A stretch of 41,486 bases of DNA from Archaeoglobus sp. JdFR-37 (GCA_002010215.1 MTMY01000034.1:1-41486); one strand, 5' to 3'; shown: positions 28,191 to 40,513, counted from the first letter of the stretch. A program made the numbers and translations. Notes: a model not told the origin generated them from the sequence alone.

Positions 28191-29225
28191 ATGTCGGTGC
28201 TGGGACTTGACATAGGCACAAACTATACAAAGGCTACCAAAGACGGTAAGGATGTCATCCTTTTTCCAAGCTTGGTTGTTTATGGTGAGGAGAAGGACTG
28301 GAGCCTTAAAGGTGAGACCAGAGATGTGTATATTGGTGAGGAAGCAGCCGCAATAGCTGCGAACATGGAGAATGTTGAAGTTCTTCGTCCCCTTCATGAG
28401 GGAAGGCTCATTCACCAGTCTTATATCGAGATTGCAAAGTACGTTTTTTCAAGACTGGGGAAAGCGGGTATTATTGCCACTGGTTTGCCGGTTAAATCCT
28501 CTAAGAAGGAGAGGGATGAAGTTGCCACTGCCCTAAAACAGAGTCTTAACTCTAACGTTCTGATCTTCCCCCAGCCGGTGGGAAGTCTTGCTTATCTGGG
28601 CTACGACACTGGTGTCTGCGTTGACATCGGCTTTGGCACCACAGACCTTGTGGTGATAGCCTCAATGGAGTACCTCAAGGGAGATACCATGCTTGTCGGA
28701 GTGGACAAGATCTACGAGAATCTGGAAATCAGTGTGAGAAACAAGGCTGGAATAAGTATAACTCCAGAAGAGATGGCAAAACTCCTTTTGGACAAAGACT
28801 ATCAGGTGGGAAGGATAAGAGGGGGAAAGAAGGTGGTCATCACCCACTCAGAACTCATGGAAGAATATTCTGAGATAATTACGGGCTGGGCGGATCGAAT
28901 TGCCAACAGGGTGAAGATGCTGCTGGAAGGCCTTTCCACATCGCTGGTTGACAAGATTGTGCTCACGGGCGGAGGGAGCGCTCTTCCAGGAGTTTACGAG
29001 GAGTTTTCAAGACAGTTTGAAGATATTGGGAGTATTGAAGTTCCAGACGATCCGCTTACTGCTAACGCTAAAGGATACTACATTCTTGCAAAGCTCTTTG
29101 CAGAGAGCTCTGAGATTGAAGGGGCTGAAGATGTGGAGGATATTGAGGAAGCTGAAGAAAGTGCGAAGGTTGAAAGGAAGGCCGAAAAAGTTAAGGGGGA
29201 GGGGAAGAAAAGTAAGAAGAAATGA
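28191..29225 (+). CDS. actin-superfamily ATPase (MreB/ParM/StbA-like)
   Basis: Phosphate 1 GLDIGTNYTK, connect 1 FPQPVG, phosphate 2 VDIGFGTTD, adenosine motif VLTGGGS, connect 2 TANAKG. Confidence 0.88.
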   Translation: MSVLGLDIGTNYTKATKDGKDVILFPSLVVYGEEKDWSLKGETRDVYIGEEAAAIAANMENVEVLRPLHEGRLIHQSYIEIAKYVFSRLGKAGIIATGLPVKSSKKERDEVATALKQSLNSNVLIFPQPVGSLAYLGYDTGVCVDIGFGTTDLVVIASMEYLKGDTMLVGVDKIYENLEISVRNKAGISITPEEMAKLLLDKDYQVGRIRGGKKVVITHSELMEEYSEIITGWADRIANRVKMLLEGLSTSLVDKIVLTGGGSALPGVYEEFSRQFEDIGSIEVPDDPLTANAKGYYILAKLFAESSEIEGAEDVEDIEEAEESAKVERKAEKVKGEGKKSKKK

Positions 29226-29722
29226 GGATTAGCGTAGACATCCCACCAGATATTGAAAGACTCCTGCTGGAAAAGTGCAAGGAGTCTAAACTCTCTCCTT
29301 CTGATTTTGTTTCTGCATTGCTTGAGTGGTATTTTCTCAAGAGAAAGAAGATGAAGCCTGATTCTGAGTTTGCTGCATATGCTCTTAGGGTGGGTAGAGA
29401 GAGAGTAAAAACGTGTAGGTACAGCGATGGGAAATTCTGTGCTTTAGATACGCTCGGTAACATAATGGAGGAGAGCGATCCTGAGCCGTTAAGCCCTTAC
29501 AGGTGTGTCTTTTGTAATGAGTATATGGATAGGAGAAGAGAAAAACTCAGGGAGAAGATCGAAGTGGGGGATGAAGTGATAGAAATAGCCAGAATAGCTG
29601 CCAGACTTGTGGTTGAGCTTTACGGGGATAAGCTGGGATACAGACCTAAACTTACCGTTGAGAGTGTTGAAAAGGAGAAAGGAATAACCGGAGAGGGGGT
29701 TAAGAAGCTCCTTGACTGGTAG
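29222..29722 (+). CDS. putative ribbon-helix-helix protein with a 4-Cys metal-binding domain
   Basis: MRISVDIPPDIERLLLEKCKESKLSPSDFVSALLEWYF (RHH pattern); CRYSDGKFC...CVFC; ATGA overlap with the actin gene. Confidence 0.65.
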   Translation: MRISVDIPPDIERLLLEKCKESKLSPSDFVSALLEWYFLKRKKMKPDSEFAAYALRVGRERVKTCRYSDGKFCALDTLGNIMEESDPEPLSPYRCVFCNEYMDRRREKLREKIEVGDEVIEIARIAARLVVELYGDKLGYRPKLTVESVEKEKGITGEGVKKLLDW

Positions 29723-30620
29723 TTTGTCTGAGCTAGGGAAGATAAGTGTTAACATAAATGGAGACCTGCCAGATTCTGAGTTGGTTGACAGAGCTAGAAT
29801 AGCTGAAGATAGTGGAATAAGAATTGTCTGGATCGGAGAAACTCCTTTTTTCAGAGACCCGTTTGAGGTTGCTGCCGTTATAGCCGATGCAACGTCCCTT
29901 ATCATAGGTTTTGGCACTGTAAGCCCTCTGAGAAGGAAGTGTGAGAACATCATAGAGAGGTTTGAAGAGCTACTGCAAAAGTTTGGGGAAAAGTTTATTC
30001 TTGCCCTGTCTCCAGGTGAAGTCAGGGAAGGCAGAGAAGGTACACTCGAAACAGTCCTCTCATGCATTTCCATTGCAAAGGAATATGGGGTTGGAGTCTT
30101 GGCTGGATGTTCTGGGAGGAGGATTACCGAGAGAGCTTCGGAGATAGCAGATGGCATCCTCTTCAATTATGTGTATCCAGATCATATACGGTGGGTTTCA
30201 GGATTTTTGAAGAGAAAAGTTTTCACAGCCGCCTACGGCCCATCTCTTCTCCTCCCAAGCCCGTTTTTCCAAGACCTCCTTATCGCATGTGCCATAGTTA
30301 TGGGGAGCAATAGGGGGTTTCTGAAAGAGTTTGGATATCTTGAAGTGTACAGTGAGATTTCAAGTGTTAATTTAGATGAGATGATTGTGCTGAGGCAGGG
30401 AGGGTTTGATATCAGTAGGCACCCTGACTCAGTTCCACTCATGAAGCACTCTCAATTCCTTTTGGACAGGTTCTCAATATGTGGAAGTATTTCAGATATC
30501 GAGACCAAGATAGAAGATCTGCTTAAACTCTGCGACCATGTGGTTCTCGGTGATCCTCTTTTTCGGGATAGGAAAGGTTTTGAAACGGTCTGCCGCTTAT
30601 CTGAGTCATTTAATAATTAA
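29712..30620 (+). CDS. LLM-class / Mer-like oxidoreductase paralog
   Basis: ARIAEDSGIRIVWIGE..FRDPF, IGFGTVSPLRR, ASEIADGILFN, FSICGS, VVLGDP. Confidence 0.75.
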   Translation: MTGSLSELGKISVNINGDLPDSELVDRARIAEDSGIRIVWIGETPFFRDPFEVAAVIADATSLIIGFGTVSPLRRKCENIIERFEELLQKFGEKFILALSPGEVREGREGTLETVLSCISIAKEYGVGVLAGCSGRRITERASEIADGILFNYVYPDHIRWVSGFLKRKVFTAAYGPSLLLPSPFFQDLLIACAIVMGSNRGFLKEFGYLEVYSEISSVNLDEMIVLRQGGFDISRHPDSVPLMKHSQFLLDRFSICGSISDIETKIEDLLKLCDHVVLGDPLFRDRKGFETVCRLSESFNN

Positions 30621-30765
30621 TTTTATTTAATTTTATCTATTAGTTAATTTAGTAATATCTAATAAAATACAGAAAAATGATAGATCAACCCCTCATTCCC
30701 AGTATAAGAAATATCTGAATTATTATAACGTTACTTTTAAATATTTTTTAAACTCTGATACTATC

Positions 30766-31479
30766 ATGAAATCTGGATTTGGAATATCCGAGCTTGACAA
30801 TCTTTTAGGTGGGGGCCTTGACAAATGTACAGTCAATCTCATTGTGGGTAGAAATGGTATAGGAAAAACAATTCTTGCTTCTCAGTGGGCTGCTCAGGGA
30901 GCAAAAAATGGCGAAAAAGTCGTATACCTATCAACAACTCTCGTACCAAAGAGTTGTGAAACGTATCTCAGCAGGTTTCATTTTATGGAAGATATCTATG
31001 AAAAAATTCACTGGAAATTTCAGGAAATCGAGTCTAAGAGTTTTATTCCTCTAACAAAAGAAAAAATAGATCAAACCATAAGGGAGGAGTTTGGAATAGG
31101 ATTTGATGAAGTTGATAGATTCGTTTTTGATTCAGCTTCAAGTCTTGAAAAGGCACTGGGTGATCCTGTTCTTTACAGAAGGGCACTTAGGTATCTTGCT
31201 GACATGTGCTACGAAAATGATGTAACGGCTATTTTTATTGAAGAAGCCCCTTATTATGGTGAGTGGAGTGAAGCAAGGCATATAGCAGAATGTATAATCT
31301 TGTTAGACCTCCTTAGAGTTCCGACGGGTTATGCAAGGGCTCTCAGGATCTTAAAAAAATATCGAACTGATCACCCACTGGACTACATCCCCTTTGAAAT
31401 AACCGAAAACGGAATTGAGCTTAAAGAAGGTAGATATGTCCGGGTTAACTATGAATTCAAATTCGAACTTGATAAGTAG
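30766..31479 (+). CDS. KaiC/RAD55-like ATPase
   Basis: FGISELDNLLGGG, Walker A GRNGIGKT, Walker B FVFDS, LRILKKYRTDH. Confidence 0.87.
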   Translation: MKSGFGISELDNLLGGGLDKCTVNLIVGRNGIGKTILASQWAAQGAKNGEKVVYLSTTLVPKSCETYLSRFHFMEDIYEKIHWKFQEIESKSFIPLTKEKIDQTIREEFGIGFDEVDRFVFDSASSLEKALGDPVLYRRALRYLADMCYENDVTAIFIEEAPYYGEWSEARHIAECIILLDLLRVPTGYARALRILKKYRTDHPLDYIPFEITENGIELKEGRYVRVNYEFKFELDK

Positions 31480-32023
31480 GTTGAATGATGCTTTAGAGCG
31501 AGGTGCAGAAATACTTCTGATAAAGGTAGACTCCAAGAGCTATGTTAGAGCTAATCTGGAGGTTCTGAAGTATTTTACAAGTATTGCTGAAGGAGGTATC
31601 TACATTGCTCTCAATAAGCCTTACTTCAGTCTGAAGAAGAACCTTACAAAAGGGGGGGTTGATGTAAGCAAGTTAATTTTTATAGATTGTCTAACTAGAC
31701 AGCTTGGCGGGGAAGAGGTGGATAGAGACAGATGTATTTACTTAAACTCACCTGATCCAGTTCTGTTACAAGTATCTATTGAGAGGGCAATGGATCTTGT
31801 AAGCTCAGAAAACAGATTTATTTATCTGGATTCCCTTTCTACCATCTCACTCTACAAGTCATTTGAGACGTTGATAAAGTTTCTGAGACACATCACGGGT
31901 AAGATAAGGTTGAGAGGTTTTGTGGGAACCATTTTCACAATTGAAAAAGAAATGGATGAAAGTTATTTCTCCCAGATCTCGTTGATGTGTGATGAGATAA
32001 TCGAGGTGAATGACTATGTATAA
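31451..32023 (+). CDS. KaiC-like fold protein lacking Walker A (DUF835/DUF7504-like)
   Basis: GIYIALNKPY..L, LIFIDC, FIYLDSLSTI, MCDEII; no GxxGxGKT. Confidence 0.75.
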   Translation: MNSNSNLISRLNDALERGAEILLIKVDSKSYVRANLEVLKYFTSIAEGGIYIALNKPYFSLKKNLTKGGVDVSKLIFIDCLTRQLGGEEVDRDRCIYLNSPDPVLLQVSIERAMDLVSSENRFIYLDSLSTISLYKSFETLIKFLRHITGKIRLRGFVGTIFTIEKEMDESYFSQISLMCDEIIEVNDYV

Positions 32024-32795
32024 ATTCCCTACCGGTATTGAAATTGTTGACACCAAAATTGGGGGAATGTATCCTGGATCTGTCATTATCTTAGAGATGG
32101 TGGGGGCTGGCGGCAAAGAATTTGCTATTAACTCTTTCATGAAGAATTCTGGGGCAGATTTCCCGACTGAACTGCATTACGTTTCGATAACCGACACTCC
32201 GGGGGAAGTTATCAGAAATATCCGGCTGACATTTCCCGAAGTAGATCAGAAGCTCCTCGACAGCCTCCTCAACAAATTACAAATAACGAGCCTTGCTGGA
32301 GTATACTTCAGGAAGAGTATAGTTCCCATGCGATGGGTTACAGACAGGAAGCTATGCATAGAGGAGCTCAAGTGTGAGGCTGACATCATGGCTCAACTGG
32401 CAGAAACTGTTGAGAGATGTGGAGATGGAAGCCTGATTTTCTTGGATTCGCTGAGCGATCTAGTGAGACTAGTTGGGAGAATAATAGAGTGGGCAGATTT
32501 TGTTGACTTGATGAAAGGATTAAAAAAGCTCTGTATAAAGAACAACATGCTCCTCATGTCTTTGCTTACCTCAGGAATTCTGGATGAAGGCAGAGAGGAA
32601 GAGCTTCTCGATCAAGCAGATGCCATTTTCGTCTTTGAATGGCAGATGGAAAAGGAGGCCATAACCAGATGGATGTATTTCAGAAAGTTCTTGGGAGTTT
32701 TGCCAATACTTGAGAGGGAGAAAATAGCCAGATACAGTGTCAAGATTGACCCATCTCAGGGTTTTGTGATTTCAAAGCTTCTTAGGGTGATGTAA
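32016..32795 (+). CDS. KaiC/RAD55-like protein with degenerate Walker A
   Basis: PTGIEIVDTKIGG, EMVGAGGKEF, IFLDSLSDL, ADAIFVFEW; GAGGTGA SD before ATG 32016. Confidence 0.8.
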   Translation: MYKFPTGIEIVDTKIGGMYPGSVIILEMVGAGGKEFAINSFMKNSGADFPTELHYVSITDTPGEVIRNIRLTFPEVDQKLLDSLLNKLQITSLAGVYFRKSIVPMRWVTDRKLCIEELKCEADIMAQLAETVERCGDGSLIFLDSLSDLVRLVGRIIEWADFVDLMKGLKKLCIKNNMLLMSLLTSGILDEGREEELLDQADAIFVFEWQMEKEAITRWMYFRKFLGVLPILEREKIARYSVKIDPSQGFVISKLLRVM

Positions 32796-33496
32796 TGACT
32801 GAACTTAGGACTGCAATGCTCTCTACAGGGATTGCCGGTCTGGATAGGATGCTCAGGGGAGGAATACCAAAGGGTCATGTGATCGCAGTTATCGGCACAT
32901 ATGGGACGGGTAAAACAACATTGGGGTTGCACTTTATCTATGAGGGGCTTAAAAACGGTGAGAACTGTATTGTGATGAGCTTCGATGAGGATGAAGACAG
33001 TATAATTAAAAGTGCCAAGAGCATTGGGATGGATTTGGAGCGGTTCAGAGACAATCTCAAGATTTTTCGTCTCGAAGCTGAGGAGGTAAGAAAATCCCTC
33101 AGCAGAATTGAGAGTGATTTATTTGAGATCATAAGCGGTTTTAACACCTCTCGGGTGCTCATCGACACTGTAAGCGTTCTGGAGACGCTCTTCGATGAAG
33201 GGGGAAGGTATAAGATGTTAGCCACAATCAGAATGATTCTTAAATCTGCAGGAGTTACGGCCATCATTACTAGCGAACCTGATAAATATAATCCCAGTTA
33301 TTCAAAATATGGGTTACTTGAGTATATATGTGATGGTCTAATCTGCCTCAAGATGATAAGGGCAAATGAGATGGAAGAGCCAACTTTGGGGCTTGAAGTG
33401 GTTAAGATGCGCAGAGTGAATCATTCAAGGAAACCAAGACCTTATACGATAACTGATAGGGGGATATCGGTGTTTGAAGAGGCTGAGATATTCTAG
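32795..33496 (+). CDS. KaiC-domain ATPase
   Basis: STGIAGLDRMLRGGIP, GTYGTGKT, LIDTVS, EYICDG, VVKMRRVNHS. Confidence 0.9.
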   Translation: MTELRTAMLSTGIAGLDRMLRGGIPKGHVIAVIGTYGTGKTTLGLHFIYEGLKNGENCIVMSFDEDEDSIIKSAKSIGMDLERFRDNLKIFRLEAEEVRKSLSRIESDLFEIISGFNTSRVLIDTVSVLETLFDEGGRYKMLATIRMILKSAGVTAIITSEPDKYNPSYSKYGLLEYICDGLICLKMIRANEMEEPTLGLEVVKMRRVNHSRKPRPYTITDRGISVFEEAEIF

Positions 33497-33589: not shown

Positions 33590-33662
33590 TGGGCTCGCCC
33601 GGATTCGAACCGGGGATCACCGCCTCGTAAGGGCGGCGTCATAACCGCTAGACCACGAGCCC
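33590..33662 (-). tRNA. tRNA-Val(TAC)
   Basis: Reverse complement GGGCTCG-TGGTCTAGCGGTTATGACG-CCGCC-CT-TAC-GA-GGCGG-TGATC-CCCGGTTCGAATCCGGG-CGAGCCC-A. Confidence 0.95.
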
Positions 33663-33736
33663 CCTTGCGCCTACTTGCTCAGTCAAACTAGGGAAATTTA
33701 AGGTTATCGCCTTGAGAGCAAAATGGGGAAAAACTT

Positions 33737-33753
33737 ATATCATTAAGTGTAAA
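33737..33753. promoter_or_regulatory. candidate BlaI-type operator overlapping the TATA box of the repressor gene
   Basis: ATATCA-TTAAG-TGTAAA; variant of the motif at 38667 and 39082. Confidence 0.45.
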
Positions 33754-33764
33754 AAGATTGATAC

Positions 33765-34118
33765 ATGGTTAAAAAGGAGAGAATAGAAATAGATGACAGG
33801 ATTTCTGCGTTATCACCACTTGAAGAAAAGATTATGGAGTATCTCTGGAATCATGGCCCGTCACATGTCTCAAAAATTTCTGAGGGTATAGGCATTTCCA
33901 TCTCAAGCGTTGCAGCAACCCTTGACAGGTTGGTCAGGCACGGGTTTGTTGAACGAAAGCAGGAGAAGGTTGATGGCAGGAGAAAATACGTCTATTTTGC
34001 TAAGCTCGGGAAAACAGATATAGAACGAAGGTTTGTGGAAGGTGTTCTTGACAGGCTCATGAGCAATTTTGGGGAGATTGTGGCAGAATACTTCCATAAA
34101 AGAGGGATTAAGCCTTGA
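33765..34118 (+). CDS. BlaI/MecI/CopY-family transcriptional repressor
   Basis: LSPLEEKIMEYLW..GP, VAATLDRLVRHGFVER, GRRKYVY, VLDRLMSNFG. Confidence 0.88.
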   Translation: MVKKERIEIDDRISALSPLEEKIMEYLWNHGPSHVSKISEGIGISISSVAATLDRLVRHGFVERKQEKVDGRRKYVYFAKLGKTDIERRFVEGVLDRLMSNFGEIVAEYFHKRGIKP

Positions 34119-34792
34119 ACAGCCTTGAATGTACAATAACTTGTCTCAAATCATCGCCTCTTTTCATCCCCACGATTCTTGTTTCAGCTGGATTTTTCAT
34201 ATCAGTTATTGGTTATTTAGCCACTAAAAATAGCCTGATGGGATTGCGTTTCTATTGGCTTGCCAATGTTTTTGCATTAATCAATGCTCCAGTAGTCTTT
34301 TTCTCTATGTCATGTGACATGCTCTGGTTCATGAAGGTTTATTTCATTTATGCTATAATGGCGATAGCCCTCATGCTTTTGGCTCCAACAGTTTACAAGG
34401 TGTACTTGATGAGGGTTTATGGATACGAGAGGGATAGAGACCTTGAAGAGCTTGCCGGAATTGAAAAAGTGTATGTGTTTAATTCAGCCCTCCCAAAAGC
34501 CTTTACTCTTGGAAGGGAGGTCTTCATTTCGGCAGGAATGCTGGATATACTGGATGGGGAAGAACTAAAGGCAGTTCTTACTCACGAAAAGTTTCACGTT
34601 GCTCAGAATGCAACACCATTGCTTGGGAGACTGAAAGTTCTGACTTTCTTGCCAATATCTCCTGAGAAACTCGAAATTATGGCTGATGAATACGCAGCAT
34701 CCATTGTAGGCAAAGAAGTGCTGGAAAGTGCGAAGAAGAAAATTACTGAGTTTTATTCCACTGTGGAGCTAGGTGAAATAGAATACGTCTGA
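34115..34792 (+). CDS. BlaR1/M56 (M48-like) membrane zinc peptidase without extracellular sensor domain
   Basis: Three N-terminal TM helices, PKAFTLG, VFISAGMLDIL...ELKAVLTHEKFH (HExxH), EIMADEYA; 4-nt overlap with the repressor gene. Confidence 0.82.
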   Translation: MNSLECTITCLKSSPLFIPTILVSAGFFISVIGYLATKNSLMGLRFYWLANVFALINAPVVFFSMSCDMLWFMKVYFIYAIMAIALMLLAPTVYKVYLMRVYGYERDRDLEELAGIEKVYVFNSALPKAFTLGREVFISAGMLDILDGEELKAVLTHEKFHVAQNATPLLGRLKVLTFLPISPEKLEIMADEYAASIVGKEVLESAKKKITEFYSTVELGEIEYV

Positions 34793-34919
34793 TTTCCAAA
34801 TTTTAGGTGATGATGGCTAGATAGTATAATATTTACATGGTATTTTTGCAGCCAGAGTCTGTCCAGCGCCAGAGACTATTCAGCACTCTATTATGTGCTC
34901 TCTTATGAGTTAGAGGTCT

Positions 34920-35153
34920 TCAAGTCCGAACTCCCTTTAGACTCTGCACAAGCCCCTTGCAAAAAGCCATTATCTCGGAATGTTCTTCTGGAGTAATGGA
35001 TTTGGTGCGATACAGAGTGGTGAGGTAAGGTTCGACAAGTCGGTTCATCAGGTCTACAAACATATAAATGGTCGATTCACACGGTTCCATATTCCTGTAG
35101 TGTTCAAACTATTTGGCCACCATAATCTTAAGCTTCAGAAGCTCTCCATCCAT
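34920..35153 (-). pseudogene. 77-codon reading frame interrupted by one in-frame TAG
   Basis: MDGELLKLKIMVAK*FEHYRNMEPCESTIYMFVDLMNRLVEPYLTTLYRTKSITPEEHSEIMAFCKGLVQSLKGVRT*; TAG at 35111-35109; TATA-like AT-rich sequence upstream. Confidence 0.5.
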
Positions 35154-35234
35154 ACAGAATTTTTATGATTTAAATTTTAAAAATTTAATTCACATAATCT
35201 TAATATAATATGCTAACATGATTTTCAAATGAAA

Positions 35235-35654
35235 TCAGTGTTCTAGATCGAATTTTGTTTCATCGAGTTCCTCATTAATTACTTCATCAGGGTCAGCATA
35301 CCATCTGGTGTTCCTCCTCTTGCCTATTATGTAGATTGCTACAATTCCTACAGCAACGGCTATGGCAGGATATGTCCAGAGACCTAAGAACACACCCTCT
35401 TTTGGAGGGTTGACTAGCACTTCCTTGCCGTACATTGACTGCAATTCGGCGATAATCTGCTCTTTAGACATTCCTTTGGCAATCATTCCTGCAATTTCAT
35501 CTCTCATTCTATCTGCTGTCCCGCATAAGCAGTTTTCAAGGACTTTTCCACATCCACAGACACACATCACATCCTTCTCCACATCTGAAACCGTCAGGGC
35601 TAGTGTAGGAGTGGCCAACAGTAAAATTAGGAGTAGTAAAGAGACGGACCTCAT
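35235..35654 (-). CDS. ccmH: CcmH-like cytochrome c biogenesis protein (five-Cys variant)
   Basis: Signal peptide, MCVCGCGKVLENCLC, MRDEIAGMIAKGMSKEQII...YGKEVLVNPP, TM helix; ATGA overlap with ccmF. Confidence 0.78.
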   Translation of the reverse strand: MRSVSLLLLILLLATPTLALTVSDVEKDVMCVCGCGKVLENCLCGTADRMRDEIAGMIAKGMSKEQIIAELQSMYGKEVLVNPPKEGVFLGLWTYPAIAVAVGIVAIYIIGKRRNTRWYADPDEVINEELDETKFDLEH

Positions 35655-37600
35655 GTTCCTACCTCCTGTTCTCTGCTGACAATGACTCGACTGACAAAGC
35701 TTTTTGGAATTAGAGCAAAGATGCCACCGAAAGTCATTATCCATGATCCAAGCCAGACAAAATTCACCAGTGGGTTTATCCGAATCTCCATGAATACTGC
35801 ATTCTCGTTTGCACCCATGAATATCAGGTACACATCTTTAAGAGGCTCTGATAGGATATCTACCTTCCGGGTCTCTTCTCCACTACCTGTTTTGTATTTC
35901 TCAATTCCCGGTTTCATGAATCCAATCAGTCTCCCCTCTTTCCAGACCTCGATATTTGCCCTCCATGTTGTCTTCAAGTTGCTGTCCTCAGCGGTAATTC
36001 CTCTGTAAATGAATGTGTATTCTTTAATCTGGTAGGGCTGATTGAGCTCAAGCTGAACATTTTTGTATTCCTCATCATATGCTCCTCCAACTATGCCAAG
36101 AAAGAGAATAAGAAGCCCCAAATGCGTTGTGTATCCGCCATACCTCCTTCTCCTCCTTAGAACTATCTTGAAGTAGCTGGAGGTTCCGTATTCCTGACTG
36201 AAAGCTCTTGTATCCCAGAGATACTGCTGAAGGTGCGCGGTGAACGCAAATCCGAATATGCCTGCTGCCAAAGTTCCTGCAAACCCGAACTTCCCAATAA
36301 AACCTGCTACAAGTCCGAGAAACATCGCAACAGCCGGGAACCTCAGTCTTCTAATCATTTCATCCTTGTAGGCTCTTCTCCATGGTACAGCAATGCAGAA
36401 ACCAACAAGGATTATCAGTGCAAGTCCAAGAGGCGTTTCCACCTGATTGTAGAATGGTGGGCCGATGGTGACTTTGTAACCTGTCAGCCCCTCGCTTATG
36501 AGGGGGAATATAGTTCCCCAAAAAATTGTCAGGGCTGAAGCTACAAGTATGAGGTTATTGAATAGGAAAGTAGCCTCTTTGGAGGCGAAGCTTTCAATTA
36601 TGTCTTCACTTTTGATAAACCCTTTCTTCTCCATTATAACCCAAATGGTCAAAATCAGCCAAAGAAGCATGTAGAGCATGAAGGGAAGTGTAAGGCTGCT
36701 CTGTCCGAAGGCGTGAACGCTGCTTATAACTCCGCTTCTGGTGATAAATGTTCCAAGCAAAACGAACTCGAAAGTGGTGAAAGCGAGAAGTATATTCCAG
36801 AGTTTCATCCCCCTTCTTGCTTCCTGAATCATGACACTGTGCATCAAAGCTGATAACGTGAGCCAGGGAAGCAGTGAAGAGTTCTCAACCGGGTCCCATG
36901 CCCAGTATCCTCCCCAGCCCAGAACCTTGTATGCCCATATAGCTCCCCAGAATATTCCCTGAGTGAGCCATATCCATGTGAAGACAATCCATTTTCTAGC
37001 ACGGAACACCCATTTCTCATCTGCAAGATATACGCCTGCGAGGGCAAGGGAGAAAACTACTGCTGCACCTGCGTAGCCTATAAACAGTGTTGGTGGGTGA
37101 GCTACCATTTCGGGAGTTTGTAAAAGTGGATTCAATCCTACGCCGTCAGCAGGCATGAAACCCAGCTGTTGAAACGGATTAGAGACAGTTGAAAGCAGAA
37201 GGAGGAAGAATGTCTGCACGGACATGGCTGTGGCCATCGCGTAGGCAGAAAGGACATCCTTTTTTTCAAGTTTTAAAAACGCCACAGTGTAACCGGAAAT
37301 GAGGAGTGCCCAGAGGAGGAGTGAACCATCAGCTCCGGCCCAGAATGCTGCAAATTTGTAGAATCCAGGAAGAGCTCTGCTGGAATATGATGCGACATAT
37401 TCGATAGAAAAGTTATCGGTCATAAAGTAATAAACCAGAATGGCCGATGCTGCAGTGACAAGTGCGGCAGTGAGGTATGTGGCTTTTTCGGCTTTGTAGA
37501 GGAGAGAAGCATCACTATTCTTGGCACCGAAATAGTAAGCTAGAGTGGCGTAAGCAGATGCCAGTAAGGATAGAACAATGGTAATATATCCTACATCCAT
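35651..37600 (-). CDS. ccmF: heme lyase subunit CcmF
   Basis: WAGADGSLLLW, GLNPLLQ, HPP, WAYKVLGWGGYWAWDPVENSS (WWD domain), GTFITRSG..SVHAF. Confidence 0.96.
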   Translation of the reverse strand: MDVGYITIVLSLLASAYATLAYYFGAKNSDASLLYKAEKATYLTAALVTAASAILVYYFMTDNFSIEYVASYSSRALPGFYKFAAFWAGADGSLLLWALLISGYTVAFLKLEKKDVLSAYAMATAMSVQTFFLLLLSTVSNPFQQLGFMPADGVGLNPLLQTPEMVAHPPTLFIGYAGAAVVFSLALAGVYLADEKWVFRARKWIVFTWIWLTQGIFWGAIWAYKVLGWGGYWAWDPVENSSLLPWLTLSALMHSVMIQEARRGMKLWNILLAFTTFEFVLLGTFITRSGVISSVHAFGQSSLTLPFMLYMLLWLILTIWVIMEKKGFIKSEDIIESFASKEATFLFNNLILVASALTIFWGTIFPLISEGLTGYKVTIGPPFYNQVETPLGLALIILVGFCIAVPWRRAYKDEMIRRLRFPAVAMFLGLVAGFIGKFGFAGTLAAGIFGFAFTAHLQQYLWDTRAFSQEYGTSSYFKIVLRRRRRYGGYTTHLGLLILFLGIVGGAYDEEYKNVQLELNQPYQIKEYTFIYRGITAEDSNLKTTWRANIEVWKEGRLIGFMKPGIEKYKTGSGEETRKVDILSEPLKDVYLIFMGANENAVFMEIRINPLVNFVWLGSWIMTFGGIFALIPKSFVSRVIVSREQEVGT

Positions 37601-38218
37601 TCATCCCACCTCCCATTTATTGTCTTTTTTATTATCCATCGTTTCATCATCATTCCTACCTCGTCGAATTTTTTTAAGATAAACTGCTGAAAAGGTTACA
37701 GCGCCCAGAAAACCAGCAAATATATATGTATTTCCAGGAGATTCATTATTCTGAGGTAGTGATGTGTATGAGGAAACTCTAGACATTTCCAAACTCATAG
37801 TGTATCCACTGGGAACGTTCTCGGAGTACAGTACTCTGAACTCAGATCCGAAAACATTCTGAATCCCAGCATCGCTAAGATTCTCCGATACTACGTATAT
37901 CGAAGGGTCAATCAGAACATATACGAGTTTTGAGGGCAACTGGAAGGTCTTCTGAAAGTACCTTCCAATCTGGTATCCGTACACTATTTTTGTTACATTC
38001 CCGGAGGCATTGACTTTCAGCACACCATTTGCTAGGGTTCCGTTACTCATCAGCACGGCATTCTCAGGAACCTCAATTGATATCTCTCCACTAGCATTGG
38101 GGATGGCTATCACCTCTACCACTCTGTACCCCTCTGTATTCGGGGTTATGATTATGTGGTGAACTGCTACAGGTGTGGCAAGAGAAGCGAGTAAAAAAAT
38201 CGTCAGAAAATTCATCAT
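37601..38218 (-). CDS. hypothetical exported protein with C-terminal membrane anchor
   Basis: N-terminal hydrophobic signal, beta-rich Asn/Ser/Thr domain, TM helix then basic residues; operonic with ccmF. Confidence 0.7.
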   Translation of the reverse strand: MMNFLTIFLLASLATPVAVHHIIITPNTEGYRVVEVIAIPNASGEISIEVPENAVLMSNGTLANGVLKVNASGNVTKIVYGYQIGRYFQKTFQLPSKLVYVLIDPSIYVVSENLSDAGIQNVFGSEFRVLYSENVPSGYTMSLEMSRVSSYTSLPQNNESPGNTYIFAGFLGAVTFSAVYLKKIRRGRNDDETMDNKKDNKWEVG

Positions 38219-38649
38219 TTTTTGCCACCTTTTTTCTCAAGCTTCCAACCATCCTTACCTTTTGAACGAGATGAAGCTTTTCCGAAATGGTATGCTACAA
38301 AGGCTGCAGCAACGATACCAAGTACATACAGAGGGAACATGTCAAAACTTGCTGATTTTGATGCGGCCTTTATCCTCTCTGTATCCTCATTAACCAGAAT
38401 TGTTGAGCCGTATAGAGTAACGAAATCCTTTATTATCGTTTCTGGTGGAACTCCCGCTATCAATCTGTTCTGTATCTGAGTTCTCGTAGATACTGCCGTT
38501 TCACAGTGGCAATTTACTAGGATCTCACCACATCCACACGGACAATATATTTTTTCTTCTACTACTCTACTGTCTATCTGCTGAGCGCTGGCTACCACAA
38601 CCGTTGCGAGAACCAGTATGAGCGTTAGAACCATACTCTTCAGTCTCAT
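38215..38649 (-). CDS. second CcmH-like protein (five-Cys variant)
   Basis: Signal peptide, IYCPCGCGEILVNCHC, IQNRLIAGVPPETIIKDFVTLYGSTILV, TM helix. Confidence 0.72.
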   Translation of the reverse strand: MRLKSMVLTLILVLATVVVASAQQIDSRVVEEKIYCPCGCGEILVNCHCETAVSTRTQIQNRLIAGVPPETIIKDFVTLYGSTILVNEDTERIKAASKSASFDMFPLYVLGIVAAAFVAYHFGKASSRSKGKDGWKLEKKGGKK

Positions 38650-38666
38650 TTCCACCACCCATCTAT

Positions 38667-38683
38667 TTTACATTTGTTGTAAA
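38667..38683. promoter_or_regulatory. palindromic candidate operator upstream of the ccmH-x-ccmF-ccmH operon
   Basis: TTTACA-TTTGT-TGTAAA, just downstream of a minus-strand TTAAATA box. Confidence 0.55.
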
Positions 38684-38692
38684 TAAGGTTAT

Positions 38693-39070
38693 TTAACGTT
38701 TACCCCTGAGTGCAGCAAGCCCCATAAGCGCTGTCAGACCGAACACTCCTTCAAAGCCAGGTGTTTGCTTTCCCGGATACGACGAGGGGTCACCTGGCAT
38801 GGTTCCTGCTCTCAGCTCCTCGATGTTAGAATATCTGTCACTGTCGCTGTCTAGCTGCATGAGCTCAGGTGTCAGGGCTTTCAGCTCTGCAAAATCCTTT
38901 CCAAAGGGGTTTAAACCCCCATAGCCAGAGCTCTGAACGTGGCAGAGAGTACATTTCTTGACCTTGTCATCAAAGTCTTTGAATGGTTTCATATATTCTG
39001 GTCTGGCATCAACAATTCCTACAAGCCCTGATAGGGTTATTATCAGCAGTAGTATCGGAATAGCTCTCAT
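38693..39070 (-). CDS. PGF-CTERM-anchored monoheme c-type cytochrome
   Basis: Signal peptide, one CTLCH, GLNPFGKDF, Ca-binding-like LDSDSDRYSNIEE..AGT.PGD, TPGF+TM+RGKR; AGGTGA SD before ATG 39070. Confidence 0.78.
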   Translation of the reverse strand: MRAIPILLLIITLSGLVGIVDARPEYMKPFKDFDDKVKKCTLCHVQSSGYGGLNPFGKDFAELKALTPELMQLDSDSDRYSNIEELRAGTMPGDPSSYPGKQTPGFEGVFGLTALMGLAALRGKR

Positions 39071-39081
39071 TTTATCACCTT

Positions 39082-39098
39082 TTTTCATCTGGTGTAAA
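39082..39098. promoter_or_regulatory. candidate operator upstream of the monoheme cytochrome gene
   Basis: TTTTCA-TCTGG-TGTAAA, 4 nt downstream of a minus-strand TTAAATA box. Confidence 0.5.
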
Positions 39099-39158
39099 AC
39101 TGTATTTAAGTATTTCTCGAATCGAATAAACTGTATTTAAGTATTTCTCGAATCGAAT
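39097..39158. repeat. perfect 31-bp tandem duplication containing a BRE/TATA promoter (minus strand)
   Basis: AAACTGTATTTAAGTATTTCTCGAATCGAAT x2 (39097-39127, 39128-39158). Confidence 0.9.
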
Positions 39159-39292
39159 CTTGTGGGGTTTCAGTGGAATTTTAAGAACTTTTAAATCATT
39201 AATACGGAGATATAGGTTTATAGCTATTAATGAAAATTCCCGTATAATCAATAACAAAAATGTTAAATACTTTCAGTACTAGGATTATTATT

Positions 39293-40513
39293 ATGAGGGA
39301 AGTGTGGGCATTAATACTTGCAATGCTATTTTTGATGGCCCCGGTTTCTGCAGCAGACTATGCGGGCAGTGATGCCTGCAAAACCTGCCACAAAGATATC
39401 TGGGAGGATTTCATAAAAACAGGGCATCCTTACAAACTCCGACCAGTTGACGAGGCAAGGCAAGGTAATGAAGAATACGGTATCAGAAAAGTGACGGAGC
39501 TTCCTGAGGGAGTTTCATGGGATGATGTTACGTACGTGATCGGTGGAGTGTGGTGGAAGACCAGATTTGTTAATAAAACTGGTTACATAATAACGGGAGA
39601 TGCAGTCCAGTACAACCTTGAGACAGGAGAGTGGGTGCCATACCATTCAGGAGAGGTTAAACCCTACGACTGCGGAAAGTGCCACACCACCGGCTACAGT
39701 GAAGAAGGACATCAGGATGGTCTGCCGGGAATAGTAGGTACATGGGCGTTTCCGGGAATTGAATGTGAAGAGTGTCATGGGCCTGCAGCAGAACATGTCT
39801 CAAACCCGACGGAGGTAAAACCCAAAGTTGATACCAGCAGTGAGCTGTGTGGAAAGTGCCACATAAGAGGATCAGCAGACATGATACCTGCCAGTAATGG
39901 TTTCATCAAGCACCATGAGCAGTATAACGAACTCATGGCATCTCCACACAAGGATCTAAGCTGTATCACATGCCATGATCCACACAAGAGCGTTAAGAAT
40001 CCGATGGTTGAAGATGCAATAAAAATGGAATGCAAGCAGTGCCATAGTGACGTTGCAAAAGAATTTGAAGAGAGTGCCATGGCTAAAGCTGGAATAGCAT
40101 GCATTGACTGTCACATGCCTTTCGCAACCAAGTCAGCGGTTAAGAGGGCTGAATTCAAAGGAGATATAAGAACTCACCTCTTCGCCATCAATACTGATCC
40201 GAATGCACCTATGTTTACTGAGGATGGCAAATACACTGCCGGCGGATACGTAACTCTCGACTTTGCCTGCCTCTACTGCCACACTGACAAAGACAAGGAG
40301 TGGGCTGCAAAGTATGCTGCTAAAGCCCACAAATTTGAAGAGGAGAAACCAGCAACTCCGACACCCACTCCAACACCTGTGAAGACTGAGACACCCACTC
40401 CAACACCAACTCCGACCCCAACACCCAAACCCAAGACACCAGGCTTCGAGACAGTGTTCGCAATAACAGGAATTCTGGCGGCTCTTTATGTCCTGAGAAG
40501 GTTTAGATACTGA
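39293..40513 (+). CDS. PGF-CTERM-anchored octaheme c-type cytochrome
   Basis: Signal peptide; 8 CxxCH (CKTCH, CGKCH, CEECH, CGKCH, CITCH, CKQCH, CIDCH, CLYCH); Pro/Thr linker; TPGF+TM+RRFRY. Confidence 0.93.
   Translation: MREVWALILAMLFLMAPVSAADYAGSDACKTCHKDIWEDFIKTGHPYKLRPVDEARQGNEEYGIRKVTELPEGVSWDDVTYVIGGVWWKTRFVNKTGYIITGDAVQYNLETGEWVPYHSGEVKPYDCGKCHTTGYSEEGHQDGLPGIVGTWAFPGIECEECHGPAAEHVSNPTEVKPKVDTSSELCGKCHIRGSADMIPASNGFIKHHEQYNELMASPHKDLSCITCHDPHKSVKNPMVEDAIKMECKQCHSDVAKEFEESAMAKAGIACIDCHMPFATKSAVKRAEFKGDIRTHLFAINTDPNAPMFTEDGKYTAGGYVTLDFACLYCHTDKDKEWAAKYAAKAHKFEEEKPATPTPTPTPVKTETPTPTPTPTPTPKPKTPGFETVFAITGILAALYVLRRFRY

Follow-up and report, generated by a model that had tools for sequence, protein, structure and literature searches.

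A conserved BlaI-type repressor and membrane zinc peptidase in Archaeoglobi: operator, regulon and a candidate thiol- or metal-sensing switch

Introduction

The locus described here raises a simple question: what does a pair of genes resembling the BlaI-BlaR1 and MecI-MecR1 systems of Staphylococcus aureus do in an archaeon, and which other genes does it govern? The pair lies in Archaeoglobus sp. JdFR-37 on a stretch of 41,486 nucleotides (GCA_002010215.1 MTMY01000034.1:1-41486), called the window below, which is an entire contig of a genome of 1.97 Mb with a completeness of 94.5%. As in the staphylococcal systems, the gene of a PF03965 repressor adjoins that of a membrane gluzincin bearing the motifs HExxH and ExxxD; the two open reading frames (ORFs) run in tandem on the same strand and share 4 nucleotides. 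Beside them the minus strand carries, in this order, a monoheme PGF-CTERM gene, a ccmH-like gene, a gene of no named family (37601..38218), ccmF and a second ccmH-like gene, and an octaheme PGF-CTERM gene stands on the other side.

The initial annotation of the region proposed an autoregulated proteolytic switch of BlaI/BlaR type which induces heme attachment and surface cytochromes together through a shared operator motif. Its gene assignments, from the overlapping repressor and peptidase genes to the ccmH-like/x/ccmF/ccmH-like operon and the two PGF-CTERM cytochromes with one and eight CxxCH motifs, agree with the sequence, and all four motif strings which it quoted are present (Table 1). 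Comparison with other genomes has shown that the pair and the operator are conserved, as are the zinc-site motifs and three cysteines of the peptidase, and regulon membership is supported by conserved sites and co-occurrence. The wider regulon suggests a response to thiol or metal stress at the envelope more than an induction of cytochromes. By its repressor the system belongs to the BlaI family and by its peptidase it stays outside M56 in the strict sense; nevertheless, it would work in the manner of BlaIR.

The operator and its position in the promoter

The operator is real and it is conserved in orthologous promoters. When 19 upstream segments of monoheme and ccmH orthologues, all from other genera, were submitted to an unseeded palindromic search, TTTACA-N5-TGTAAA emerged with an information of 15.7, against 6.9-7.8 in 8 shuffles, and even palindrome widths scored lower (9.2-10.5). 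The scoring matrix was made from 17 of these 19 segments (the two without a site were dropped) and none of them came from this genus; by this matrix the sites before the ccm operon (38667) and the monoheme gene (39082) rank first and second in the whole 1.97-Mb genome, at the two promoters for which the initial annotation had claimed them. Six intergenic sites reach at least 16 bits, whereas 30 shuffles gave a mean of 0.3 and a maximum of 2, which places the motif above the AT-rich background, a comparison that the initial annotation had named as a possible refutation. Operators of BlaI, MecI and CopY repressors consist of TACA/TGTA half-sites with a spacer of 2 nucleotides, while the spacer of the archaeal palindrome is 5 nucleotides long.

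The density of the pattern and co-occurrence were counted in 96 genomes of the class Archaeoglobi, in which related genomes are not independent of one another. Its density is 2.2 matches per Mb in the 20 other genomes that have the pair, as compared with 0.95 per Mb in the 75 that do not, and the reversed pattern, used as a control, is flat (0.72 and 0.73 per Mb, respectively). One genome (G068) has eight pattern matches though no pair was detected in it.

A TATA-like box was matched in 15 of the 22 promoters inspected, with the site beginning 7-14 nucleotides after the start of the box (12 nucleotides in the case of both 38667 and 39082, on the minus strand) and the ATG often following 1-4 nucleotides past the end of the operator. 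The site thus spans the stretch between the TATA box and the transcription start, and a dimer bound there would probably stand in the way of RNA polymerase; since the sites are so placed, repression by occupation of this space is predicted with considerable confidence. At the monoheme promoter a 31-bp tandem duplication (39096-39157, copies from 39096 and 39127) spans the TATA box and the edge of the operator; it is single-copy in a genome of the same genus (L001) and may be either real or an assembly artefact.

Distribution of the pair

Strong matches of the peptidase were found in 21 of the 96 Archaeoglobi genomes and of the repressor in 19, and in 18 of these 19 the two genes are adjacent, thus the arrangement is not a peculiarity of one genome. 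In a sample of the phylum 36 of 401 genomes were positive, 19 of them outside Archaeoglobi, and the repressor stands beside the peptidase in 25 of 26 loci outside the class. Beyond Halobacteriota it is rarely met: samples of two other phyla contained it in 1 of 351 and in 6 of 301 genomes. Among the organisms which have the system are Geoglobus acetivorans (P0012) and Candidatus Methanoperedens (P0035, P0037, P0062).

The repressor

PF03965 is the best family of the repressor, and its orthologues score 37-40 bits. The repressor profile matches MecI (1okr, E 5e-6) over residues 10-112, and in this alignment Y109-F110 falls on N101-F102 of MecI, with Phe110 opposite the scissile Phe102. This phenylalanine is conserved in at least 90% of the aligned orthologues, a likeness to BlaI and MecI. 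CopY identity was considered and ruled out because the repressor has no cysteine; its TIGR02698 score is 21.6 bits against a cut-off of 121.95.

The recognition helix (SSVAATLDRL type) is conserved together with the operator. Outside Archaeoglobi, where the repressors are 40-92% identical to the query repressor, a site of at least 12 bits precedes 24 of 25 repressor genes in 1-4 copies within 150 nucleotides upstream, and of the 340 genes in these loci the 41 that pass 12 bits are nearly all the repressor or its divergent neighbour. Since the palindrome accompanies a single regulator in three phyla, the simplest view is that it is that repressor's own site, and binding of the palindrome by the BlaI-type repressor is predicted with high confidence.

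The membrane peptidase

The peptidase begins with an N-terminal helix bearing C6-x3-C10, followed by three predicted membrane helices, of which the second and third are joined by a loop containing C67, and its catalytic motifs are H157ExxH161 and E187xxxD191. In 16 Archaeoglobi rows there is no variation at any of the five motif residues (H157, E158, H161, E187, D191) or at the three cysteines C6, C10 and C67. Among 59 full-length homologues HExxH was found in 59, ExxAD in 58 and CxxxC in 56, the remaining three being N-terminally short gene calls, and a set of 30 diverse rows shows no change at C10 or C67; the N-terminal cysteines to which the initial annotation had drawn attention are therefore nearly invariant. 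Distant relatives of 240-255 amino acids mostly have no CxxxC, but 120 of 125 have at least two cysteines in their first 110 residues. A large sister subfamily (P0134-P0257) of the same length has other cysteine patterns, and some of its members are named from Bathyarchaeota or Thermoproteota.

An AlphaFold2 model with a mean confidence (pLDDT) of 79.9 comprises the short CxxxC helix, helices 17-36, 40-64 and 70-101 and a gluzincin domain. Like BlaR1, the archaeal peptidase is predicted to have its N-terminus outside and three helices before a cytoplasmic protease domain. Because BlaR1 is N-out and the first loop of the archaeal protein has basic residues (K/R), the three cysteines are predicted to face outward. 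Residues 20-225 of the model were aligned to BlaR1 1-303 with a Z score of 8.2 and a root-mean-square deviation of 7.0 over 183 aligned residues, the Z values of this structural comparison being middling throughout, and a Foldseek search gave no match at E<=0.001. The protein ends 34 residues after D191, and most orthologues sooner, so that there is no fourth helix, autocleavage loop or C-terminal sensor. A profile match to BlaI-linked bacterial M56 peptidases (E 8.8e-22, 147 columns) stands beside one to HtpX (4.8e-18, 134 columns). HtpX identity was ruled out, as the NCBIfam score is 33 bits against 369 and the peptidase lies apart from 12 HtpX rows in a quick tree. For the complex of peptidase and repressor the prediction score was 0.29, with a mark of 0.32, which speaks neither for nor against the contact.

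The regulon

In Archaeoglobi the envelope genes follow the pair closely. The ccmH-like genes occur in 20 of the 96 genomes, the monoheme gene in 15 and a membrane protein represented by C21:4858 in 14, always together with the pair and in none of the 75 genomes without it; in 14 of 20 other Archaeoglobi ccmF is a neighbour of the pair. The site before ccmH is retained (14.3-22.6 bits) in all five genomes in which operon and pair lie apart, which argues for control at a distance and not mere neighbourhood. The CcmF of the window is 42% identical to a ccmE-linked copy on a different contig (C3:17783); it has the WWD motif WGGYWAWDPVEN, and it shares His168, His254, His296 and His493 with that copy. 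Conserved histidines have defined roles in CcmF proteins. The CcmH-like proteins pass the PF03918 cut-off, but CxCGC-x5-CxC replaces LRCxxC.

Elsewhere in the genome both DUF411 paralogues carry sites (13.5 and 14.9 bits). Sites recur before orthologues of DUF411, of a membrane-anchored rhodanese and thioredoxin, of a class I S-adenosylmethionine (SAM) methyltransferase and of a pair of His/Cys membrane proteins (C21:4858/C21:4307), and in other genomes these genes cluster with the repressor-peptidase pair or with one another. For the C21:4307 protein only unnamed clusters were found in the ESM Atlas. Outside Archaeoglobi the commonest target is an FtsX-type ATP-binding cassette (ABC) transporter with an FtrD-like protein, and in G319, of another family of the phylum, three sites precede genes for a thioredoxin, a PCYCGC protein, CcdA, a ferredoxin-type protein and ccmF. 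It can be said that the targets are mostly membrane-anchored or exported proteins, rich in cysteine or histidine, which handle thiols or metals. P1B metal ATPases were found in 8 of 41 pair loci (611 kb), where about one would be expected, given that the genome has 4 in 1.97 Mb. A DUF411 gene, named copG, is induced 16-fold by copper in Vibrio according to the accessible part of PMC12341060. With the two DUF411/CopG paralogues, thioredoxin, rhodanese, CcdA and FtrD with its transporter among its members, the wider regulon looks like an answer to stress on thiols or metals in the envelope and less like a means of inducing cytochromes.

Further sites of 10-18 bits lie at C4:43187 (NiCoT transporter), C13:12160 (flavin adenine dinucleotide/iron-sulfur oxidoreductase), C6:8950, C7:25217 and C18:30263; behind the last three are, in this order, a gene of an unnamed family, a geranylgeranyl-reductase-like gene and a DUF420 gene. 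A MerA gene above the TIGR02053 cut-off (C10:22304-23695, L103) is situated just upstream of two rhodanese-thioredoxin operator sites and is itself site-less. In L143 and L144 (G092, G093) the operator-led ccmH operon includes ccmE and may be the main ccm operon of that family. G291 (L195-L197), a genome with the pair, has perfect sites of 19-22 bits near a TFE/mcrD-like gene, a further gene and a methyltransferase gene.

The octaheme cytochrome, which had been counted into the same regulon, does not belong to it. Its promoter has no site in its own 150 nucleotides (best -1.4), and the TAACA-N4-TGTTA palindrome to which the initial annotation pointed is indeed present upstream, but it has the wrong spacing, scores poorly and is kept only in the genome of the same genus. 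At E<=1e-40 the gene was matched in 5 of the 96 genomes; the orthologues from G039, G013 and G092, which represent three other genera, are unlinked and site-less (best 1.7, -1.5 and -1.9), so that it is a neighbour in this genus only. The same-genus orthologue is broken, with a stop inside the match (L001 868-1585, G054). None of the 20 multiheme genes of the genome exceeds 12.1 bits, some of them being operon-internal or at contig ends, which weakens this test, and the housekeeping ccmE-ccmF1 promoter has no site (-0.9 bits). An exception is a 19.7-bit site 160 nucleotides before a tetraheme operon in G036. Because the octaheme, other multiheme and ccmE-ccmF1 promoters have no site, the joint induction of heme attachment and surface cytochromes claimed initially is not borne out in general and applies to no more than the spare ccm operon and the monoheme protein.

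Proposed mechanism and alternatives

In the proposed mechanism repressor dimers bound to the palindromes would hold the target promoters off. A change at the outer three-cysteine site would be passed through the helices to the zinc site, and the peptidase would then cut the repressor in its C-terminal dimer helix, after which the module would be expressed. In Archaeoglobi the output would comprise the spare CcmF, two Cys-rich CcmH-like proteins, the monoheme surface protein and DUF411/CopG, with the membrane-anchored thioredoxin and rhodanese, the two His/Cys membrane proteins and the SAM methyltransferase; elsewhere it would be mostly the FtsX-type transporter with its FtrD-like protein. The chain as a whole, a protease-triggered switch which senses a thiol-binding metal or oxidation and has an envelope module as its output, has a somewhat better than even chance of being right. 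Its parts may be judged separately: that the cysteines are the sensor is likely, release by cleavage near Phe110 is equally probable by analogy with BlaI, and the signal is rather likely to be copper or another thiophilic metal, or a disulfide-forming oxidation of the outer face, with copper taking the larger share. A sharper version, in which the outer three-cysteine site binds Cu(I) or a thiophilic ion, or forms a disulfide, and so directly licenses cleavage of the BlaI-type repressor in one step, is offered tentatively; it would also account for the retention of CcmH and of a second CcmF in a minority of archaea, namely for the rescue of heme attachment when surface thiols are poisoned.

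Several observations weigh against this proposal. In G056 the two genes lie on separate contigs with other neighbours between them. The peptidase has no PF05569 (M56) match at E<=0.01 and a weak M48 match instead, contrary to the M56 membership assumed in the initial annotation; PF05569 is also absent from three further orthologues of archaea, whereas its cut-off is passed by 6 of 7 bacterial neighbours. In the quick tree of 77 rows the archaeal peptidases form a clade of their own, apart from both bacterial M56 and HtpX, and the fold does not single out BlaR1 because its structural score is tied with Ste24 and below BepA. With the autocleavage loop of BlaR1 missing, the peptidase would need some other means of being kept off. 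The P1 residue in the repressors is Tyr or Phe and not Asn. The repressor's own site (33737-53) reaches 6.4 bits and rank 67 of 1860 upstream regions, and the repressor promoters of 18 other Archaeoglobi all stay below 12 bits; a site is found at the same position in several orthologues (3.6-11.8 bits). Autoregulation, claimed in the initial annotation, is strongly indicated outside Archaeoglobi and weakly within the class, where the self-site appears to be decayed. As regards copper, 33 of the 41 pair loci have no P1B ATPase match and two of the eight positives are near-duplicates of others; the copper pumps are mostly without a site (CopA -1.8, second CopA operon -8.1, SHOCT-copB 6.3 bits), and CopA is adjoined by its own TRASH regulator. 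Finally, the FtrD/ABC genes, the NiCoT gene (18.3-bit site) and FeoB beside L036 suit metal uptake equally well.

The last point leads to the opposite cue, in which the cysteines would hold a metal or cofactor (Fe, Cu, Zn or heme) and its loss would trigger cleavage, with a metal-scavenging and cofactor-repair response. The three sets of genes just named speak for it, the transporter with FtrD being the most widespread target and FeoB having beside it a helix-turn-helix (HTH) regulator, with a 13.4-bit site. This is unlikely, however: excess or oxidation would better account for DUF411/CopG, thioredoxin, CcdA, rhodanese and the linkage to efflux ATPases, and the NiCoT site comes from a single genome, the present one.

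It might also be supposed that the repressor binds the operator but is released otherwise than by cleavage, in answer to some other cue, and that the peptidase is a mere quality-control protease, co-transcribed and akin to HtpX. The best Pfam, NCBIfam and PDB sequence matches of the peptidase are indeed M48/HtpX, its top structural rows are BepA and Ste24, tied with or slightly above BlaR1, and the separation in G056 agrees with this. Such an arrangement is nevertheless quite improbable, as the repressor has neither cysteines nor a ligand domain, the pair is adjacent nearly everywhere, the genome encodes a separate HtpX placed in another clade of the quick tree, and the profile match to BlaI-linked M56 is somewhat better than that to HtpX.

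The respiration regulon of the initial annotation, in which heme attachment and surface cytochromes would be induced together, for example for growth on insoluble Fe(III), draws on the two best sites at the ccmH-ccmF-ccmH operon and the monoheme gene, on ccmF under three sites in G319, on the site before the tetraheme operon in G036 and on the description of the cassette in iron reducers (PMC4600277, in the part available). The site-less octaheme, multiheme and ccmE-ccmF1 promoters speak against it, multiheme-rich genera (g13, with 21-31 first-look candidates) have neither the pair nor ccmH, and no ccmF was found in the 21 non-Archaeoglobi pair loci tested, which makes this explanation hardly probable. 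That the palindrome is the site of another regulator travelling with the cluster (DUF7343 HTH membrane proteins neighbour several Archaeoglobi loci), or a by-product of AT-rich promoters or GGTGA ribosome sites (the site at C10:23832 overlaps GGTGA, and matches occur even in genomes without the pair), is very improbable in view of the arrays of up to four sites directly before the repressor outside Archaeoglobi, the recognition helix conserved with them and the low count in shuffles.

Comparison with known systems

BlaR1 is N-out, has the HExxH and ExxxD motifs and cleaves BlaI directly at Asn101-Phe102, as stated in the accessible part of PMC9834060. Unlike BlaR1, the archaeal peptidase has no PF05569 match, fourth helix, autocleavage loop or penicillin-binding sensor, and it has an additional N-terminal CxxxC helix and a loop cysteine; unlike BlaI-BlaR1, the archaeal system has no beta-lactamase target. 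In bacteria BlaIR systems as a rule have no sensor, and what they respond to is not known, as far as the available portions of PMC13492132, PMC5473688 and bioRxiv 10.64898/2026.08.03.742534 report. In Mycobacterium tuberculosis (Rv1846c/Rv1845c) BlaI binds the cytochrome bd and ATP synthase promoters (PMC5473688, same portion). The archaeal system resembles this one, CenIR of C. difficile (PMC13492132) and PvmSR of P. aeruginosa (bioRxiv 10.64898/2026.08.03.742534) in having no beta-lactam sensor and in regulons of the envelope or respiration, going by the accessible text of these sources. By the same text CenR and PvmS retain the fourth membrane helix, unlike the archaeal peptidase; all three systems are bacterial with no cysteine sensor named, and the word archaea is absent from the accessible CenIR and PvmSR texts. 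In contrast to the bacterial sensor-less systems, the archaeal one has a TATA-type promoter and a visible candidate sensor. Some bacterial BlaI-M56 loci (L044, L047, L049) are followed by DsbA, DsbB, redoxin or DsbD-HMA-cupredoxin genes, a possible envelope-thiol parallel.

CopY of Enterococcus and Lactococcus has a C-terminal metal-binding motif of cysteines. The archaeal repressor shares with it the fold, the half-site and a likely link to copper, but it has no cysteine and metal sensing would fall to the membrane peptidase.

A duplicate ccmF between two ccmH-like genes with non-canonical cysteine motifs has been published for Geoglobus and Ferroglobus (PMC4600277, PMC4429474); no regulator or operator of that cassette is named in the accessible parts of these papers, and neither 'BlaI' nor 'transcriptional regulator' appears in PMC4600277, whereas here it always occurs with the pair. 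No archaeal BlaIR system was found in the literature searched, a search which left subscription journals largely outside.

Features of the locus

The elements of the locus are collected in Table 1. No match in Pfam or NCBIfam was found for the membrane-anchored protein encoded between the first ccmH-like gene and ccmF. The gap between the peptidase and the second ccmH-like gene (34793-35234) is missing from most relatives and matches a small ORF at C2:16845-17117 (37% over 70 amino acids); it presumably holds a decayed HicA-like gene, a label given by eye. Upstream of the pair, 28191-33496 encodes an MreB/actin-like protein, a 166-amino-acid protein, a luciferase-like protein and a run of KaiC-type ATPases with DUF835/DUF7504. 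In L010-L012 the pair comes directly after the same KaiC run, and in the window a tRNA-Val gene (33590-33662) intervenes.

Table 1. Positions of the genes and sites of the locus in the window
Feature	Position	Strand	Remarks
Repressor's own site, weak operator with one good half-site	33737..33753		overlaps repressor TATA box TTATAT 33735-33740
BlaI/MecI-family winged-helix repressor, 117 amino acids	33765..34118	+	PF03965 55.8 bits (cut-off 22.6)
Membrane zinc peptidase, 225 amino acids, TTG start	34115..34792	+	HExxH and ExxxD motifs
CcmH-like protein 2 (CxCGC-x5-CxC, no LRCxxC)	35235..35654	-	PF03918 69.7 bits
Second CcmF (heme lyase) paralogue	35651..37600	-	PF16327 and PF01578 above cut-off
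Membrane-anchored protein of no named family	37601..38218	-	relative at same place in G093
CcmH-like protein 1 (CxCGC-x5-CxC), first gene after strong operator	38215..38649	-	PF03918 26.6 bits
Perfect operator TTTACA-N5-TGTAAA	38667..38683	read on minus strand	22.4 bits, genome's best
Monoheme (CTLCH) PGF-CTERM surface protein, Temptin_C-like DxDxD segment	38693..39070	-	likely start ATG 39070
Monoheme-gene operator	39082..39098	read on minus strand	19.4 bits, genome's second best
TAACA-N4-TGTTA, not an operator of this repressor	39252..39265		best matrix score -4.5, frames 39246-39255
Octaheme (8 CxxCH) PGF-CTERM cytochrome, not a regulon member	39293..40513	+	diverges from monoheme/ccm genes

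Biological meaning

The second CcmF and CcmH of Archaeoglobi, for which there has been no explanation, can now be given a candidate regulator together with an operator and a regulon. Here the receptor is pared down to about 220 residues with a candidate sensor of three cysteines, which makes the question of the sensor accessible by point mutants. If the proposal is true, transmembrane signalling by proteolysis of a repressor would act on a promoter of the TATA/TATA-binding protein type, and if the reading of the peptidase as a receptor of Cu(I), another thiophilic ion or disulfide formation is true, it would be the first sensor-less BlaIR with an identified chemical signal. Among the organisms concerned, Geoglobus acetivorans and Candidatus Methanoperedens are studied for metal respiration and anaerobic methane oxidation.

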